From the sequence record KP085586: 50,109 nt of DNA; one strand, given 5' to 3'. Every line of letters starts with the position of its first letter. Position 1 is the stretch's first letter. A program made the translations under genes and the position numbers. Source of the stretch: Shigella phage pSf-2. Of this stretch, positions 732 through 38,273 are shown in pieces. The notes beneath the pieces were generated by a model. The model worked only from the letters and a program-made list of their open reading frames with translations. It made no database searches and was not told the DNA's origin.

Positions 732-754
732 AGGAGGCTAAGCCTCCTTTTTTT
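732..754. terminator. Rho-independent terminator (hairpin aggaggc-taa-gcctcct plus T8), between convergent genes
   Basis: 7-bp GC stem, 3-nt loop, T-run on + strand; stop of minus-strand spanin gene lies in the stem. Confidence 0.6.
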
Positions 755-1142
755 CGCCCTTACGAATTGAAAAATAAACCAGCAACAGACCAATGAGAAC
801 GAGGGTCCAACCAACTATAGGATCATACCAGTTTCCGGGCTTAGTCACAGTGATGCTTTCAGCGTTAACCGTGTTGGCCTGAATGGTTGACACTTCAATT
901 GACTTCTTCACGGAAGAGTCAACCTTTCCTACATTGGACTTTTCAACTTTAACATCTCGCTTATCTTCGGATTTTGCGGTTACTCCTGCTAATTGCTTTG
1001 TGTTCTCCTCCCCAATCTGTGCTGTAACTTCAGGCTTAGATCCTATTAAACCGCTCAGGGCAGATGCCGTCGAGCAACCTGATAGAGAAATAACACCAAC
1101 AGACACTACAATCGCAACGCACTTTTTCTTCAGTTTCATCAT
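738..1142 (-). CDS. unimolecular spanin-like lysis protein (OM lipoprotein with C-terminal TM anchor)
   Basis: N-terminal lipobox LSGC after signal peptide, C-terminal hydrophobic helix [13 protein letters not shown]; directly downstream of endolysin; architecture as in T1 u-spanin. Confidence 0.65.
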
Positions 1143-1627: not shown

Positions 1628-1842
1628 TATCTCCTCCTGATCTTAAGCGCCTTATTTAGATCGCCATCGTTTAACGCTTCCTGAATTGCCTTGCTATCGC
1701 GATACTTCCAGTACGCTCCCCAAGCGCCAAAAAGCAGAAAGCAAATGAATGTAGCGCCAGCAATATAAAGTTGACCTGTCGCCGCCCCCACCAACGAAGC
1801 ACCGCCCGTGCTTGACGTAGCTGCTGTTAAAAATTCTTTCAT
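1627..1842 (-). CDS. holin (start moved to internal ATG)
   Basis: 71 aa, one strong TM segment, charged C-terminus KALKIRRR; ggtgag SD 5 nt before ATG 1842; track start 1869 is TTG. Confidence 0.55.
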
Positions 1843-21239: not shown

Positions 21240-24047
21240 TCATTTTTTGAACATCATTTCTACGCCCTGAGAAATTCCTCTCGGATCTGAACCGTTGTCA
21301 ACTTTAACCTCCATACCCCTAACATCAACGACCGTCCCGCCTGCTGATTGGTTCACTGCCTTCGGTGCGGATTTAGATGCGTTAAATCCAGATGTTGCAA
21401 CACTACCCGCAGCGGCAGCAAGCGAGGTAACAGCGACGCCTGAAGATAAAGACCTAAAACCAGAGACGGCAGGCGTAGGAGTTTCCTGTGATACCGCAGA
21501 AGCACCAGGCGACACCCCTCCAGCAAAGCTCCACGTCTTACCGCCCATCATGCCTGAGATCGTATTGAAGATTACCATTTGAGCAATCATCTTGATAATC
21601 ATGCTAATGATGTTTTTCGCAAAGTCCTCAAAATTTGCCTTACCTGTAGTCAGGAATTGGGTCATCATGTCACTCATTCCGTTAAGTGAACTTGACGCGA
21701 TATCATACACGTTGCCGTACATATCCATTGCAGAATCGCCGTAATCTGCAAATGCACTTTCAGCACCTGCTAACCAGTCAGAACGCTTGGCATCTTCCGC
21801 AGCATAGTAATCATTTTGTGCCTTGATCATGTTCTGGAGTTTTTCATCTCCTTCGCTGCCACCTGCATTAATATAATCAGTAGTGATCTTAGCCAACTCA
21901 GCTTGTCTTTCCATTTCTCGGGTGCTCATCCCTCGAGACGCGTTTAGCTGTTCTGTAGCTGCCGTCAAATCATTGACAAATTTCAGTGATTTATCGGTAA
22001 GAGCGTTCAGCTGCTGCTGCTTAACAATCTGATCGCCAATCTCAGCCTTTTGTTTCGCAAGCTCTAAAACCTTCTCTTGGTTTGCAAGTAGTGCTTTTTC
22101 TTCCGCAGATAGCTGACGCTTAGAACTAGCTTCTCGAAGAACAGCAATTGTAGCCTCAGTCGTAAACAGCGCCTTTCTCTGTGCTGATATTTTTTGCCCG
22201 ATCTCCTTGTGCTCCTGCAAAACCTTAAGCTGCGCTTTGAGTGAAATTAACTCCTTATCGAATTGCTCTGTAGGTGAGCGTAAAATTTTCGACTGCTTAT
22301 TTCGTTCACGGTTTCGCTTTTCGATCTCTTTAGCTTCTTCCTTGATAGCGTCCTTAGTTTCCTGGCTATACTGCTTTTCAAGAGTACGGCGCTGCTTCAT
22401 TGCTTCAATGTATCCCATCTCACCTTTTTCAACACGGGCGTTAATGGCATCAAGCTCTGAAGCTAACTGATCGTAGTTGTCACGAGAACTTTTTACAATA
22501 TTCTCCTGTTCCTTTAGTACATCAGCACCAAAATCACTCATGCCAGGCAGGGACTGTGTAGCCTTAATTGCAGATGCGATAAAGTTTGAGATGTACTCAT
22601 CACCCTTAGCAAGAATCATTTTCACCTGAATTACTGTACCTTGAACTACGTCAATAATCAGGTTTAACGCTCCGAGCGTATGATCCCCAACCCATCCCCA
22701 CGCATCAGAAGCCCACTGCTTAATATCGTTCCACATTTTTTCAAGAGGTGTGGCATTGTCTGCGATCGACTTCATTCGTTTTTCCATTACATCGGCGAAT
22801 AATTTCGTGGCTTCAGACACTGCCTCCGTTTCACCCTTAGTACGGCTTAGAGTATCGATGTATGTCAGCTGTCCTTTTTCTAAAAAATTGTATTGCTCGT
22901 TAAGTTTAGCTAAACCCTTTACAGGATCGCTTGCGATTTTATCGAACTCAGCGATGATTTTACTTGCTGATTTTCCGGTTGCTGTCGACCACTCAGCGGT
23001 AGCTTTTGTGATGTTCTGAATCTGCTCTCGCGTATACTTCCCCGTACTGGCAAGTTCAGTAACAATATCACGAATACTTCCAACGGTTGAGTTACTTGTC
23101 TGCGCAACCTTTTTAGCAACCAAATCAAGATCATCAGCCGTAACTCCAGCATAACCTCCAGTCTCAATAAGTGCATTCTGCATATCAGTTATTGACTTGT
23201 AAGAGTCATAACCAGCTTTCGCAAGAAGACCTAAAGAACCGACAAGAACACCAACGCCAACTGTGACCGGATTAATATAACTTAGCAATACCTTAAACGT
23301 ATTCCCGATCCCGCCGAACGAGTCCTTGATTTGACCGCCTTGCTGGATGGCAACCATCCAAACTGGCATACCGGACGCAAGAGATGTAACGACGTCGGTA
23401 ATCTGTGCAGGAAGCATTCGCATTGCCTGCCTATATTGCCCTGCGCTAATACCTGCGGCATTCATGGCTCGACCCTGTTCTTTCAGTTTTGCGATCAGGG
23501 GCGCTGCTTCATTTGATAGTCCAAGCTGAGCCGCTTTCAGTTCCATTAACTCTGCGTGAGTTTTGCCAATGGCGTTAACCTGACTATTCAGGGAATCCAT
23601 GAACGCTTTGTTTTTCGCTGCCGCCTGCTCTTTTGCTTTCGCCTCCTGCAATGCTGCCTGACCTTCTTCTGTAAGCATGGCCCGGCTGCGAGCAAGTTTT
23701 GCGTTTTGCATATCCAGCATTTCACCTAACCGGAAAAATGTTTCATCTGGAACGACGCCCTTTTGCCAGAGCTTGTCAAGCTGCTGAGATGCAATCTTCA
23801 GCCTTTCCATTTTTGATACTGTAGGATCGATTGCCTTTTCTACAGCCTCGTACTCTTTTCGCTGGCGCTTAAGTTGCTCAGCGTGTTCTTTAGCCTTCTG
23901 TTTTGCAACCTCAGCCTCATTGATTAAAGACCCCATAGAGTCAGCGGCTTGGTCGTTAGCTTTTGAAAACTCTTTCAATGACTTGACGGCGCGCTCCACT
24001 GTCGACACATCAACGTCAAGCGATAGACCTGCTACCTTATCAACCAT
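21240..24047 (-). CDS. tail tape measure protein
   Basis: 935 aa, coiled-coil rich, Gly/Ser C-terminal region, between chaperones and M-like gene. Confidence 0.85.
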
Positions 24048-24062
24048 ATAACCCCCTTATAT

Positions 24063-24086
24063 ACAAAAAAACCGCCAAACGGCGGC
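24063..24086 (-). terminator. terminator/attenuator hairpin
   Basis: ccgcc-gttt-ggcgg followed by T7 on minus strand, overlapping stop of 24087 ORF. Confidence 0.45.
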
Positions 24087-24413
24087 TTAGTTATTCTGCT
24101 TAGCAATCATTTCGAGCGCTTTCGCTTCCATGATCCTAACGTCCTGCAATGCCAGTTCTTCATCCTCTATTTTATAGATTTTAAACAACATAGGCAAAAC
24201 ATTATAATCAAGACCGTAAGCGCCAGCGCCTGAACTTCTCCACTGAGTGAGCATTGATGTAAAAACATTCCAAGCCTTCAACATTTCAGCGTCGCCAATT
24301 ATCGTTTCCGGTTCCTCGTCTTCATAGTCAGAAAGACTTAAACCAACCGATCGCAATTGTTCCTCTGTTGGCGGCTTCTGATATAACAGATAGACCGCCT
24401 TTTTTAGTTTTTT
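24087..24413 (-). CDS. T-like extension of tail assembly chaperone, expressed by -1 frameshift from 24404..24721
   Basis: -1 frame is open from the slippery heptamer to stop at 24087; no ATG (track start is TTG); position before tape measure. Confidence 0.6.
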   Translation of the reverse strand, partial: KKLKKAVYLLYQKPPTEEQLRSVGLSLSDYEDEEPETIIGDAEMLKAWNVFTSMLTQWRSSGAGAYGLDYNVLPMLFKIYKIEDEELALQDVRIMEAKALEMIAKQNN

Positions 24414-24721
24414 GCGCGGTGTCCGGCAAGCGCCTTGATGTAAGTCGCTGTCAGGTTGTACGCTGCGGAAGGATAATACTGAACCAGTTTTCGTGAATTT
24501 TCTTCGTTAAATTCTTCTTCAAGGTTCCATCCTGACGCGATCTTGGTAATGAACTCGCTGTCGTTCATTTCTCCCTGGTTAGCATACATGTCCTGAACTT
24601 CTTTACTGGAAAGGTGTCGCACAGTGAAAATGATCGTTGCATCTTCACCGTTAGGCATGGTGAAGGTAACTGGAAGTTTGAAGTCTGGAAGTTGACCAAG
24701 AACGAAATTAAATTTAGCCAT
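24404..24721 (-). CDS. tail assembly chaperone (lambda G-like)
   Basis: 105 aa, acidic; ends GCA AAA AAC TAA so a slippery heptamer precedes the stop. Confidence 0.65.
   Translation of the reverse strand: MAKFNFVLGQLPDFKLPVTFTMPNGEDATIIFTVRHLSSKEVQDMYANQGEMNDSEFITKIASGWNLEEEFNEENSRKLVQYYPSAAYNLTATYIKALAGHRAKN
24407..24413 (-). other. -1 programmed frameshift slippery heptamer A AAA AAC
   Basis: X XXY YYZ heptamer in zero frame of G-like ORF immediately before its stop. Confidence 0.6.
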
Positions 24722-24742
24722 GATATTTCTCCTGATTGGTTA

Positions 24743-24760
24743 ATAGCACTTTTTGTTAAA
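24743..24760 (+). promoter_or_regulatory. 18-bp dyad motif copy (atagcactttttgttaaa), opposite orientation to flanking late genes
   Basis: 21 nt upstream of G-like start 24721 on other strand; followed by accaatcaggag leader. Confidence 0.55.
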
Positions 24761-24792
24761 AGCAAAGAGTGCAAAGTTGATACGATGATTTT

Positions 24793-24823
24793 ACAGAAAT
24801 GAAGAAGGGGGCGCAAGCCCCCT
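24793..24823 (-). terminator. terminator-like hairpin after major tail gene
   Basis: aggggg-cgcaag-ccccct hairpin, modest T-rich tract. Confidence 0.35.
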
Positions 24824-24834
24824 GTGGATATGAT

Positions 24835-25503
24835 TTAGGCACCAGGTGATGCCAGAGCGGATGAAACGAAAGTGAAATCACCCTTCAGGGATACGGCGAG
24901 TTGTACCGTTTCCATTTCGTTTACTTGCGTAGATGGAATGTCGTTAAAAGACAAGATACCAGCCCACATGCGCATCTCGTTCGCTTTTGGAACATACATC
25001 CGAACCGCAGTTACCTGACCAGAAGAATCCAGCTTACGCAGAATAGGATAGATAGGGTTATCAAATTCGTGCGCGAAGGTGTACGTTAGCGAGATTGCAG
25101 ACTTAAACGTCGGGATCTGCTGCTCTTTATCGTCAGACAAACACTGATAAGTGTAATACTGCTGCTCGCCGCCGTCCTGACCAATCTCCTGTACGCAAGG
25201 GATCTCAGTCCAGCCAGTAATTTTTGCAAAGCTCATTGTACCGCCAGCCGGGAAAACAAGAGCATCAGTAGTGTCAATCCCAGCAAGAGTAATGCTTGTT
25301 TCTTGGGCGTCAGTAACAATTAGTACTCGACTAACCATCTTAGCCCAAGTTGACTGAGTTACAATAACGTAATCACCTTTCGCCAAGTCGCCCTTAGATG
25401 CAACTGTAGCAACAGGATTTTTTGCGTTAGTGACAGCGGTCGCCTCGATCTCTTCTCCGCGAGAGGTTTCCACGAAAATTTGCGCGCCATTTGGTAAGTG
25501 CAT
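24835..25503 (-). CDS. major tail protein
   Basis: 222 aa, beta-rich, directly upstream of chaperone pair. Confidence 0.55.
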   Translation of the reverse strand: MHLPNGAQIFVETSRGEEIEATAVTNAKNPVATVASKGDLAKGDYVIVTQSTWAKMVSRVLIVTDAQETSITLAGIDTTDALVFPAGGTMSFAKITGWTEIPCVQEIGQDGGEQQYYTYQCLSDDKEQQIPTFKSAISLTYTFAHEFDNPIYPILRKLDSSGQVTAVRMYVPKANEMRMWAGILSFNDIPSTQVNEMETVQLAVSLKGDFTFVSSALASPGA

Positions 25504-37632: not shown

Positions 37633-37743
37633 TTAGCATCTCCCTAAAAATAATTTTGCCATATTGATGATAGTGTGATTGATGATTAACAGGATGATAA
37701 CCGTCAATACCGGATGTGCTGCAATAAATTCGTACAGGTTCAT
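37633..37743 (-). CDS. small hydrophobic protein (36 aa, not in ORF track)
   Basis: ATGA overlap with HAD gene stop, TAA 1 nt before kinase ATG; TM segment PVLTVIILLII. Confidence 0.3.
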   Translation of the reverse strand: MNLYEFIAAHPVLTVIILLIINHTIINMAKLFLGRC

Positions 37744-38273
37744 TCATCTACCCCGTGAGATTTTAAATGATTGTGAACGTTATCGCCATAGTCAACTACA
37801 GCGTAAGTGGTTATCCCAAGCGATCGGAATAATGGAATAATTTGCGGCGAGTCATCCCAGGCCGCCAGAATGTTCTCAATACCGATAGCGCGCACCGCCT
37901 CCTCTTTCATCACCGTATCTTTCCGGTTATCGGTGTGCGGACGCATAATCAGGTAATCATATCGCGCACCGTAGCGCTTTAACCATAACTTTGATTCGTG
38001 ACGCACCTCATCACTACGTCCGGTTAAGATAATGACGTGATAACCCGCAGCAAATAATGAGTTCATCACCTCAATAGTGCTCTGAATAGGATCGTCATGA
38101 TTTGCTGCACGGTTAAATTCAGACCAACTTTCCGTAAGGTGCAAATCATTTGTCGGTAGCAAGTGGAGGCGCTTTGAGCCATCGCTAAGCGTTCCGTCAA
38201 AGTCAAAGATTGCTACGCGGCGCGCGCCGAGAAACAGGTTGATTGTCTGGCCCCAAATTGTGATTTTATCCAT
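37740..38273 (-). CDS. HAD-superfamily phosphatase (Pnk 3'-phosphatase / 5'-nucleotidase-like)
   Basis: DxDGT motif FDFDGTL near N-terminus; HAD-like spacing of later Asp residues. Confidence 0.6.
   Translation of the reverse strand: MDKITIWGQTINLFLGARRVAIFDFDGTLSDGSKRLHLLPTNDLHLTESWSEFNRAANHDDPIQSTIEVMNSLFAAGYHVIILTGRSDEVRHESKLWLKRYGARYDYLIMRPHTDNRKDTVMKEEAVRAIGIENILAAWDDSPQIIPLFRSLGITTYAVVDYGDNVHNHLKSHGVDE

Follow-up and report, generated by a model that had tools for sequence, protein, structure and literature searches.

A probable programmed -1 ribosomal frameshift in the tail assembly chaperone genes of the T1-like Shigella phage pSf-2

The T1-like siphophage pSf-2 (Tunavirus) very probably expresses its tail assembly chaperone pair by means of a programmed -1 ribosomal frameshift, as judged from an analysis of its DNA sequence. 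The window, which is the whole stretch of 50,109 nucleotides analysed here (sequence record KP085586), carries the pair at positions 24,087 to 24,721 on the minus strand. An earlier note on this DNA had proposed the G/GT frameshift strategy of tailed phages at this place, immediately upstream of the tape measure gene, and all the defining sequence-level features of that strategy are indeed present; a fusion protein is predicted. The call of a T1-type G/GT frameshift is correct and ordinary; it is already recognised and is not new.

The features that define a G/GT-type system were taken from Xu, Hendrix & Duda (2004). One of them, the presence of two overlapping ORFs between the major tail and tape measure genes, is found in pSf-2, where the chaperone pair sits on the minus strand between the genes of the tail tube and of the tape measure protein. 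The window is 99% identical to phage IME18. Directly 5' of the pair, a 222-aa ORF (24835..25503, minus strand) encodes the major tail (tube) protein, which matches PF08813 Phage_tail_3 (8.6e-70) and phrog_584 'major tail protein' (5e-97). The tape measure protein gene (21240..24047, minus strand; 935 aa) lies 3' of the pair, and its product matches PF06791 TMP_2 at 1.7e-74 and PF09718 Tape_meas_lam_C at 5e-25. A consensus scan placed two terminator-like hairpins on the same strand: one in the gap between the tube gene and G (24806..24823), with a 7-pair stem including 6 GC pairs and a T-rich tail, and one immediately 3' of the T stop, before the tape measure gene (24069..24088). The T1 record has a rho-independent terminator annotated at the position equivalent to the former and a terminator at the position equivalent to the latter.

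The upstream ORF (24404..24721, minus strand) runs from an ATG start to a TAA stop and encodes a G-like tail assembly chaperone of 105 aa, the product of normal translation. A Shine-Dalgarno sequence, AGGAG (24729..24733, minus strand), is read directly in the sequence 7 nt 5' of its start codon. G belongs to Pfam family PF08748 Phage_TAC_4 (125.8 bits against a cut-off of 21.1, E 1.5e-36), which its residues 1-105 cover from end to end (profile positions 1-124 of 124), and it also matches phrog_569 and phrog_17368. The single-sequence AlphaFold2 model of G was too poor for fold comparison (pLDDT 47, pTM 0.28). The 3' end of the gene reads ...CAC CGC GCA AAA AAC TAA and, as had been pointed out beforehand, the ORF closes on a slippery heptamer: A_AAA_AAC, in the X_XXY_YYZ register, occupies its last two sense codons (24407..24413, minus strand) and is abutted by the G-frame stop TAA (24404..24406, minus strand).

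The T extension (24087..24407, minus strand) follows in the -1 frame, from CTA at 24407..24405 to TAA at 24089..24087, and would add 106 aa after a slip. The predicted products are G, of 105 aa, and GT, of 105 + 106 = 211 aa, with C24407 read twice. Translation of the -1 frame from 24413 to 24087 gives 108 sense codons and then the stop, that is, 106 codons past the G stop; the earlier note was right that this frame is open from the heptamer to the stop at 24087, and its count of 107 codons has to be amended. Its statement that the frame contains no ATG holds for the first 42 codons and fails beyond them, where in-frame ATGs occur at 24284 and 24254. The -1 frame is open for 33 codons 5' of the G stop as well. 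T is a member of PF08809 DUF1799 (46.8 bits against a cut-off of 26, E 3.6e-12), residues 26-103 of the -1-frame translation being aligned to profile positions 4-80 of 80. Both parts are met in phrog_17368, a profile of 213 positions, with G at 1-107 and the T frame at 107-212 (3.4e-44).

An exhaustive search of representative proteins with the T frame gave 372 homologues. Among the best 150 of them there was no natural in-frame G-T fusion, which counts against the frameshift, and all but one measured 50-142 aa; the lone long match, P0131 with 427 aa, was set aside as a translated repeat array and hence spurious. When the predicted 211-aa fusion was the query of a word-indexed protein search, the one match had 123 aa, covered T only and tells nothing about fusions in nature. 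The PDB sequence search retrieved nothing relevant (best E 0.13, a proteasome subunit), NCBIfam and PADLOC gave no match, and the searchable literature yielded no protein-level proof of a GT fusion from any T1-like phage.

We compared the slip site in 80 related IMG/VR loci, 78 of them intact, from several subfamilies of Drexlerviridae, and in fetched GenBank loci. In 54 of the 80 IMG/VR loci A_AAA_AAC runs straight into a stop (TAA in 52, TGA in 2), and it does so too in GenBank loci of Tunavirus, Tlsvirus, Changchunvirus, Hanrivervirus, Wilsonroadvirus, Vilniusvirus, Loudonvirus and Dhillonvirus and in the Braunvirinae phage IMM-001. The arrangement xxA AAA AAC plus stop is retained where the G proteins share just 37-59% identity. 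The Lys codon is in every case preceded by A, at a 4-fold-degenerate position, while the Arg codon ahead of it may be CGC, CGA, CGG or CGT, and AAC is never replaced by AAT in the 54 heptamer loci, where the full X_XXY_YYZ is invariant. The remaining intact loci read GCA AAA GTY/GCC TAA (19 loci) or GCA AAG GTC TAA (5 loci), and in both types the position is still occupied by a Lys slip site, A_AAA or A_AAG. In the Dhillonvirus phage EE09, a -1-frame TGA stands immediately 5' of the heptamer, which is thus the sole possible shift site there. The overlap of the two ORFs, as in other G/GT-type systems, holds a slippery sequence conserved among relatives.

The heptamer by itself is no rarer than chance: the window contains 19 copies of AAAAAAC, where 14.5 ± 3.8 would be expected. 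Among the 59 ORFs that are 100 aa or longer, the -1 frame continues for 80 codons or more beyond the stop in 10, and 3 carry an in-frame heptamer within their last 10 codons. Only the G ORF combines the open -1 frame with a late heptamer, where about 0.5 would be expected by chance, and such a coincidence in a single window is not itself improbable. The evidence that the frameshift is real lies in the gene context, the family assignment and the conservation in relatives.

The same arrangement could also arise from two independent genes, with T starting at TTG 24356 or at a later ATG and using its own ribosome-binding site, and with the heptamer incidental. The earlier note had remarked that the ORF track begins the -1 frame at a TTG, and this codon (24354..24356, minus strand) does open a separate 89-aa ORF in the ORF list; ORF finders and the GenBank records of IME18, LHE71 and T1 likewise give a separate downstream CDS. 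GAGG precedes TTG 24356 with a 5-nt spacer in pSf-2, where some independent initiation may take place, and a few distant relatives (NBD2, P0004, P0010) have an ATG near T-frame codon 9-10. However, neither a start nor a Shine-Dalgarno sequence is conserved. T1 has TTA at the codon aligned to TTG, other genera (PHB17, vojen, Sd1, IMM-001, DTL) have CTT or CTG there, no start codon is conserved before T codon 43 among the aligned relatives, and in Smiley, EE09 and Ymer the first in-frame start comes at codons 52 to 69, within or past the conserved TQWR core and not ahead of it. The annotated starts also disagree, the T gene being 55 aa long in T1, 89 aa in IME18 and 84 aa in Sd1 and not called at all in vojen, while the starts given by gene callers to stand-alone T homologues are scattered over query positions 1 to 54.

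Coding selection bears on the same question. In the -1 frame, purifying selection sets in at the heptamer and is clear across the 15 codons from the G stop to TTG, ahead of which there is no start. For T-frame codons 4-18, 5' of TTG, entropy summed by codon position is 6.8 / 6.2 / 18.6, and codon pairs differing by one base, counted over codons 4-17 after the heptamer, are synonymous or nonsynonymous in a ratio of 3470:650 in the -1 frame, compared to 70:4176 in the 0 frame and 663:3668 in the +1 frame. This selection across the junction argues that ribosomes read the shifted frame from the slip site onwards. Termination-reinitiation was also considered and rejected, as no start codon is present near the stop and T-frame codons 2-18 are conserved as protein. 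As in G/GT-type systems, the second ORF lies in another frame, here -1, and shows no conserved start or ribosome-binding site. We therefore regard an independent T gene as very improbable, and TTG 24356 is most likely just a Leu codon.

Within the preferred explanation, a -1 ribosomal frameshift at the end of G, the slip could be made on A_AAA by a single Lys-tRNA while the A site is still empty, and not by two tRNAs in tandem. The junction would then read ...AKK-LKK..., and AAC and the stop would matter merely as a slow or empty A-site context. The 78 intact IMG/VR relatives, 24 of which lack the heptamer, all share just one element, an A followed by a Lys codon, and the tetramers A_AAG and A_AAA are known to serve as shift sites in IS elements of E. 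coli (PMC4066793). Tetramers are nevertheless generally outdone by heptamers, and the absence of AAT from the 54 heptamer loci suggests that the signal includes the A-site codon. A single slip, which is a sub-variant of the main explanation and does not contradict it, thus has a very slim chance of being correct. It is just as hard to credit transcriptional slippage, in which RNA polymerase would add an A in the A6 run and produce a minority mRNA with G and T in frame (...AKK-LKK...): the site is homopolymeric and the A5 version found in one relative, L041, points to a run prone to length errors, but the same architecture exists in Webervirus with GCA AAA GTT TAA (A4) and in Rogunavirinae with GCA AAG GTC TAA (A3), runs too short for polymerase slippage, and it is the codon register X_XXY_YYZ that is conserved and not the length of the run. 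Efficient slippage of the E. coli RNA polymerase reportedly requires runs of about 9 or more (Baranov et al. 2005).

In the ribosomal frameshift that we favour, most ribosomes would end at the G TAA and release the 105-aa chaperone. We infer that a small fraction would move back by one base on A_AAA_AAC, the Lys-tRNA (AAA) and the Asn-tRNA (AAC) re-pairing on AAA AAA; the slipped ribosomes would then take CTA as Leu and run through 106 codons of the -1 frame, yielding a 211-aa GT with the junction ...HRAKN-LKKAVYL.... The efficiency of the slip can be anticipated in the same way: the GT:G ratio is expected to be low, since A_AAA_AAC is a low-efficiency site in E. coli. On the model of lambda G/GT, the G portion would bind the tape measure protein, the T portion would recruit the tail tube protein, and the virion is expected to contain neither G nor GT.

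The adjacent stop codon and a hairpin located 7 nt 3' of the heptamer may aid the slip. This hairpin, GGCGGU...GCCGCC (24370..24399, minus strand; -14.0 kcal/mol), is a candidate stimulator. Equally stable folding was obtained in 1.4% of 500 synonymous recodings of the pSf-2 sequence. Performed on seven lineages, the recoding test was significant in two, the window (fraction as stable, 0.014) and LL5 (0.01), and not in T1 (0.14), Smiley (0.29), EE09 (0.45), Sd1 (0.81) and DTL (0.87). The alignment fold of the relatives showed almost no compensatory change in the hairpin, and covariation was negligible. Neither GGAG, AGGA nor GAGG occurs as a Shine-Dalgarno-like element 6-17 nt 5' of the heptamer, where only GGA is found (24424..24422), 8 nt upstream. 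The Rfam scan of 24000..24800 gave nothing near gathering scores.

A second heptamer, A_AAA_AAG, is located in the T frame (CTA AAA AAG; 24399..24405, minus strand), 2 nt 3' of the first. It is specific to the window/IME18 type, T1 having AAA AGG instead, and a further -1 slip there would enter a frame open for about 25 codons; its effect is probably minor. The G frame would remain open for about 21 more codons if the adjacent stop were lost, and yet the stop is present in 54 out of 54 heptamer-bearing IMG/VR relatives. This constancy suggests that the stop could be an integral 'shifty stop', with the stronger A_AAA_AAG of the IME18 type diverting some of the GT ribosomes to a third product of about 130 aa, a scenario that we hold to be unlikely. 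If it were true, frameshifting would compete with termination and the GT:G ratio would track release-factor activity or the growth state of the host.

The G/GT chaperones can be compared with those of phage lambda (Levin, Hendrix & Casjens 1993; Xu, Hendrix & Duda 2004, 2013, 2014; summarised in PMC5009743). Lambda and pSf-2 have in common overlapping ORFs between the major tail and tape measure genes, the second of them in the -1 frame without a start, and a heptamer near the end of the first ORF, with the short product in excess and little fusion (both being predictions in pSf-2). They differ in the heptamer, which is G_GGA_AAG in lambda and lies several codons before the stop, whereas A_AAA_AAC abuts the stop in pSf-2, and in the length of G, 140 aa in lambda against 105 aa. 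Lambda GT has about 279 aa, compared to 211 aa for the GT predicted in pSf-2. Comparison by hhalign with shallow 9-sequence profiles gave no homology to lambda G or T (probability 0.1% and 1.2%, respectively), and the sole resemblance was a 13-column GLxYxVLxxxF motif (E 0.046). The relation to lambda G/GT is one of function and architecture, sequence homology not having been detected.

The heptamer A_AAA_AAC shifts poorly in E. coli, which counts against the frameshift in pSf-2. IS elements make use of this low-efficiency heptamer, and in IS1 it is the proven site of the insA-insB' -1 frameshift (Sekine & Ohtsubo 1989; Escoubas et al. 1991; both discussed in PMC4066793). IS1 and pSf-2 share the identical heptamer, the E. 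coli translation apparatus and the use of a low-efficiency site for little fusion protein, and no strong stimulator is established in either. IS1 encodes a transposase, unrelated in protein and biology, and the stop directly after the heptamer is a feature of pSf-2. The E. coli dnaX gene (gamma/tau, A_AAA_AAG) resembles pSf-2 in its lysine-run heptamer with a hairpin, a candidate stimulator in pSf-2, a few nt 3', but it has an upstream Shine-Dalgarno-like element, of which none was found in pSf-2, and its frameshift product is the shorter protein, whereas that of pSf-2 is the longer one. As the last base of the pSf-2 heptamer is C and not G, a much lower efficiency than in dnaX is expected.

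Joined -1 frameshift CDSs are already present in GenBank for Escherichia phage LL5 (MH491968, Tlsvirus; 632 nt) and Klebsiella phage Smiley (PQ337355; 641 nt), lengths which, like the 635 nt spanned in the window, are consistent with a -1 shift. The frameshift of the tape measure chaperones has been described for Citrobacter phage Stevie (PMC4319613) and likewise for Klebsiella phage Skenny (PMC6763657). In these T1-like phages the proteins are homologous to those of pSf-2, with the same Pfam families and gene order. The G of LL5 is 53% identical and ends in GTA AAA AAC TAA; the Smiley-type Klebsiella phages, unlike pSf-2, have GCA AAA GTT TAA and lack the heptamer. The records closest to the window, those of IME18, LHE71 and T1 (RefSeq), contain no join and now show two separate small genes that look unrelated and whose starts are arbitrary (55 or 89 aa); to annotate G together with a joined GT would be better.

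The practical value of the finding lies in this annotation, which bears on proteomics searches and on research into defence systems that sense such chaperones. For phage engineering, recoding or refactoring of the region would destroy the slip site. As regards the biology of these phages, the analysis adds nothing new beyond two documented points on slip-site conservation: across Drexlerviridae and Dhillonvirus, the Lys slip site is strictly kept, as is the stop next to it, and A_AAA_AAC, A_AAA_G and A_AAG replace one another at one position.

The upstream chaperone ORF of the pair (G, 105 aa; 24721..24404, minus strand) opens with an ATG located 7 nt past an AGGAG and ends, as the earlier note had claimed, in GCA AAA AAC TAA, which we read more fully as ...CAC CGC GCA AAA AAC TAA. 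The heptamer A AAA AAC (24413..24407, minus strand) lies in the X_XXY_YYZ register and is directly abutted by the G stop (24406..24404, minus strand). The -1 frame (T) is indeed open from the heptamer to its stop at 24089..24087 (minus strand), but over 108 sense codons from 24413 instead of the 107 first counted; it stays open for 106 codons past the G stop and for 33 codons ahead of it. Its reported lack of ATG applies to the first 42 codons only, with ATGs present beyond at 24284 and 24254, and the mechanical ORF list does open this frame at a TTG, at position 24356. The window contains 19 copies of AAAAAAC against 14.5 ± 3.8 expected, so that the heptamer by itself is not significantly enriched. 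Among the 59 ORFs of 100 aa or longer, ten were followed by a long open -1 frame past the stop and three carried an in-frame heptamer within their last 10 codons; G alone combined both features, where about 0.5 such ORFs would be expected by chance. The observation is correct, but its weight rests on context and comparison. Two other minus-strand ORFs end near a slippery motif: one of 134 aa (1142..738), with an in-frame A_AAA_AAG 3 codons ahead of its stop and a -1 frame open for 31 codons past it, and one of 177 aa (38273..37740), with an in-frame T_TTA_AAA 7 codons ahead of its stop and a -1 frame open for 36 codons.

A 901-base query around the pair showed 99% identity to Enterobacteria phage vB_EcoS_IME18 and 90-97% identity to dozens of Escherichia and Shigella Tunavirus phages; judged by sequence, the window belongs to Tunavirus (T1-like phages, Drexlerviridae). 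Every gene treated around the pair is on the minus strand. The gene before G encodes the tail tube protein (PF08813) and the gene after T a lambda-H-like tape measure protein (PF06791 and PF09718), while G matches PF08748 (Phage_TAC_4) over its full length (E = 1.5e-36) and the -1 frame matches PF08809 (DUF1799, E = 3.6e-12). On the 213-position profile of PHROG 17368, G covers positions 1-107 and the -1 frame positions 107-212, so that the members of this family are G-T fusions joined exactly at the heptamer. In RefSeq, G, T and the true tape measure gene are all named 'tail length tape measure protein'. Terminator-like hairpins are found after the tube gene, before G (24823..24806, minus strand), and after T, before the tape measure gene (24088..24069, minus strand), and T1 is annotated with terminators at the equivalent positions. 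This bracketing suggests that transcription is attenuated in steps as it proceeds through the tail operon.

G matched 1007 phage records by tblastn, most at less than 60% identity and most from Escherichia, Klebsiella, Salmonella, Citrobacter and other hosts. Slip sites were compared in 80 IMG/VR loci and in GenBank representatives of Drexlerviridae (Tunavirus, Tlsvirus, Changchunvirus, Hanrivervirus, Wilsonroadvirus, Vilniusvirus, Loudonvirus and the Braunvirinae phage IMM-001), together with Klebsiella phage Smiley, Dhillonvirus and Pectobacterium phage Ymer. The ending xxA AAA AAC followed by a stop was present in 54 of the 80 loci (TAA in 52, TGA in 2) and in the GenBank loci of all sampled Drexlerviridae genera and Dhillonvirus; G of the Tlsvirus phage LL5, which ends in GTA AAA AAC TAA, has the heptamer and stop of the window. 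Smiley and Ymer are without it. The Smiley-type ending GCA AAA GTY/GCC TAA was found in 19 of the 80 loci (e.g. L004, L069-L093) and GCA AAG GTC TAA (A_AAG-type) in five (L051, L053-L056), both types having A followed by a Lys codon (A_AAA or A_AAG) that lies one codon ahead of the stop; Ymer ends in CAA AAG TAA. Three endings, A_AAA_AAC-stop, A_AAA_GTY-stop and A_AAG_GTC-stop, are exchanged at one codon position. Two of the 80 loci are damaged sequences, one with an A5 run and one with many indels. The former, L041 (IMGVR_UViG_2974632794_000001, ~1805..1815), reads GTA AAA ACT AAA..., with A5 instead of A6, which extends G to 122 aa and places T in the +1 frame; the probable cause is an error in sequencing the homopolymer of the slip site. 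The base ahead of the Lys codon, the third of an Ala or Val codon and thus 4-fold degenerate, is invariably A, whereas the Arg codon just upstream varies between CGC, CGA, CGG and CGT. As read from these sequences, an invariant A next to a free Arg third base reflects selection at the nucleotide level, for which a slip site is the only explanation. G of Dhillonvirus EE09 is 38% identical; there, a -1-frame TGA stands immediately ahead of the heptamer, which leaves the heptamer as the sole point at which a shift could bring the frames together.

The T-frame translation is kept from the heptamer on (KKLKRAVYLxYQKPPT...). Over the 15 codons that separate the G stop from the TTG position, the summed entropy of codon positions 1, 2 and 3 in 39 distinct sequences was 6.8, 6.2 and 18.6. 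Single-base differences between codon pairs, which are not mutually independent, were 3470 synonymous versus 650 nonsynonymous in the -1 frame, compared to 70 versus 4176 in the 0 frame and 663 versus 3668 in the +1 frame. In this alignment the pattern of -1-frame coding ahead of the TTG is unambiguous. In this phage T may be initiated independently at the TTG, which has a GAGG 5 nt upstream, but as a selected mechanism this conflicts both with this upstream coding selection and with the loss of the codon in T1 (TTA) and in other genera (CTT or CTG in PHB17, vojen, Sd1, IMM-001 and DTL). The earliest widely common Met of the T frame is codon 43, and in Smiley, EE09 and Ymer the first in-frame start occurs at codons 52 to 69, within or past the invariant TQWR core. 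GenBank gives the downstream gene a length of 55 aa for T1, 84 aa for Sd1 and 89 aa for IME18 and LHE71, and has none for vojen; among the matches listed when 1.84 billion representatives were searched exhaustively, stand-alone T homologues start at query positions 1 to 54. In the T1 (L013, NC_005833, 19339..19506) and IME18 (L002, 2045..2314) records, the start of the downstream ORF is placed arbitrarily at an internal codon.

Gene context, protein families, slip-site conservation and coding selection in the -1 frame thus bear out the G/GT chaperone reading of the earlier note and support a programmed -1 ribosomal frameshift as the best explanation of the pair; very probably, a -1 shift at this A-run yields the GT fusion. 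Lys-tRNA (on AAA) and Asn-tRNA (on AAC) would re-pair on AAA AAA, CTA would be the next codon and reading would go on to 24087. The predicted products are G, of 105 aa, and a 211-aa GT whose junction reads ...HRAKN-LKKAVYL.... The 635 nt of 24721..24087 give (635+1)/3 = 212 codons, and the LL5 and Smiley GenBank records, which annotate the frameshift as a joined CDS, fit the same -1 arithmetic (632 and 641 nt). A single Lys-tRNA may slip in place of the tandem, which would alter one junction residue alone, K for N. Transcriptional slippage on the A run is unlikely, as the architecture is unchanged at homologous sites whose runs are only A4 or A3 long.

A candidate stimulatory hairpin (GGCGGU...GCCGCC; 24399..24370, minus strand; -14.0 kcal/mol) starts 7 nt past the heptamer. 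The 87-nt stretch containing it has a z-score of -2.1, and only 1.4% of 500 synonymous recodings matched its stability. Tempevirinae and EE09 likewise have hairpins spaced 6-7 nt from the site, as do Smiley-type Klebsiella phages, where the hairpin sequence differs; A_AAG-type and Braunvirinae loci have weak hairpins or none. The recoding test was significant only in the window and LL5 (fraction as stable, 0.01), and not in T1 (0.14), Smiley (0.29), EE09 (0.45), Sd1 (0.81) or DTL (0.87). Folding of the alignment revealed almost no compensatory change and an unfavourable covariation term. With significance in two lineages and covariation near nil, the hairpin is a candidate only. That hairpins are weakest in A_AAG lineages would fit a lesser need of A_AAG for stimulation. 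No SD-like element was found upstream of the heptamer. The abutting stop may assist the slip through a slower A site, an effect inseparable from plain two-frame coding constraint. A second heptamer, A_AAA_AAG (24405..24399, minus strand; T frame CTA AAA AAG), starts 2 nt past the first. No other heptamer shifts as readily in E. coli. It results from an AGG to AAG change (Arg to Lys) common to IME18 and some other relatives, T1 having AGG; a -1 slip there as well would enter a frame open for ~25 codons and give a product of ~130 aa.

A_AAA_AAC is a low-efficiency site in E. coli, far weaker than A_AAA_AAG, and belongs to the motifs shifting above 0.1% without stimulators (PMC5009743; PMC4066793); it is also the proven shift site of IS1 (PMC4066793). 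A low yield from this site would fit the lambda paradigm of ~30 G per GT (PMC5009743). By analogy with lambda, the G part would bind the tape measure protein and the T part recruit the tube protein. Architecture and presumed function are alike in the two systems, but hhalign detected no sequence similarity to lambda G or T, and the relation is best described in these terms rather than as demonstrated homology. One weak 13-column hhalign match (E = 0.046, probability 1.2%) pairs YGLDYNVLPMLFK of T (T-frame residues 64-76, window ~24218..24180) with SGLTYTVLSLFFS of lambda T (residues 55-67) and overlaps the DUF1799 motif that is best conserved; shared descent with lambda T could have left this match as a remnant, or it could be due to chance.

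The G/GT strategy goes back to Xu, Hendrix and Duda (2004), as cited in PMC5009743 and PMC7660901. Among T1-like phages, the frameshift is stated for Citrobacter phage Stevie (PMC4319613) and Klebsiella phage Skenny (PMC6763657) and suspected for Rogue1 (PMC3496638); we found no experimental proof of the fusion product in the literature for any T1-like phage. The G/GT frameshift is already known for this phage family, and the main value of the present analysis is to mend the two-gene annotation in T1, IME18 and related records.
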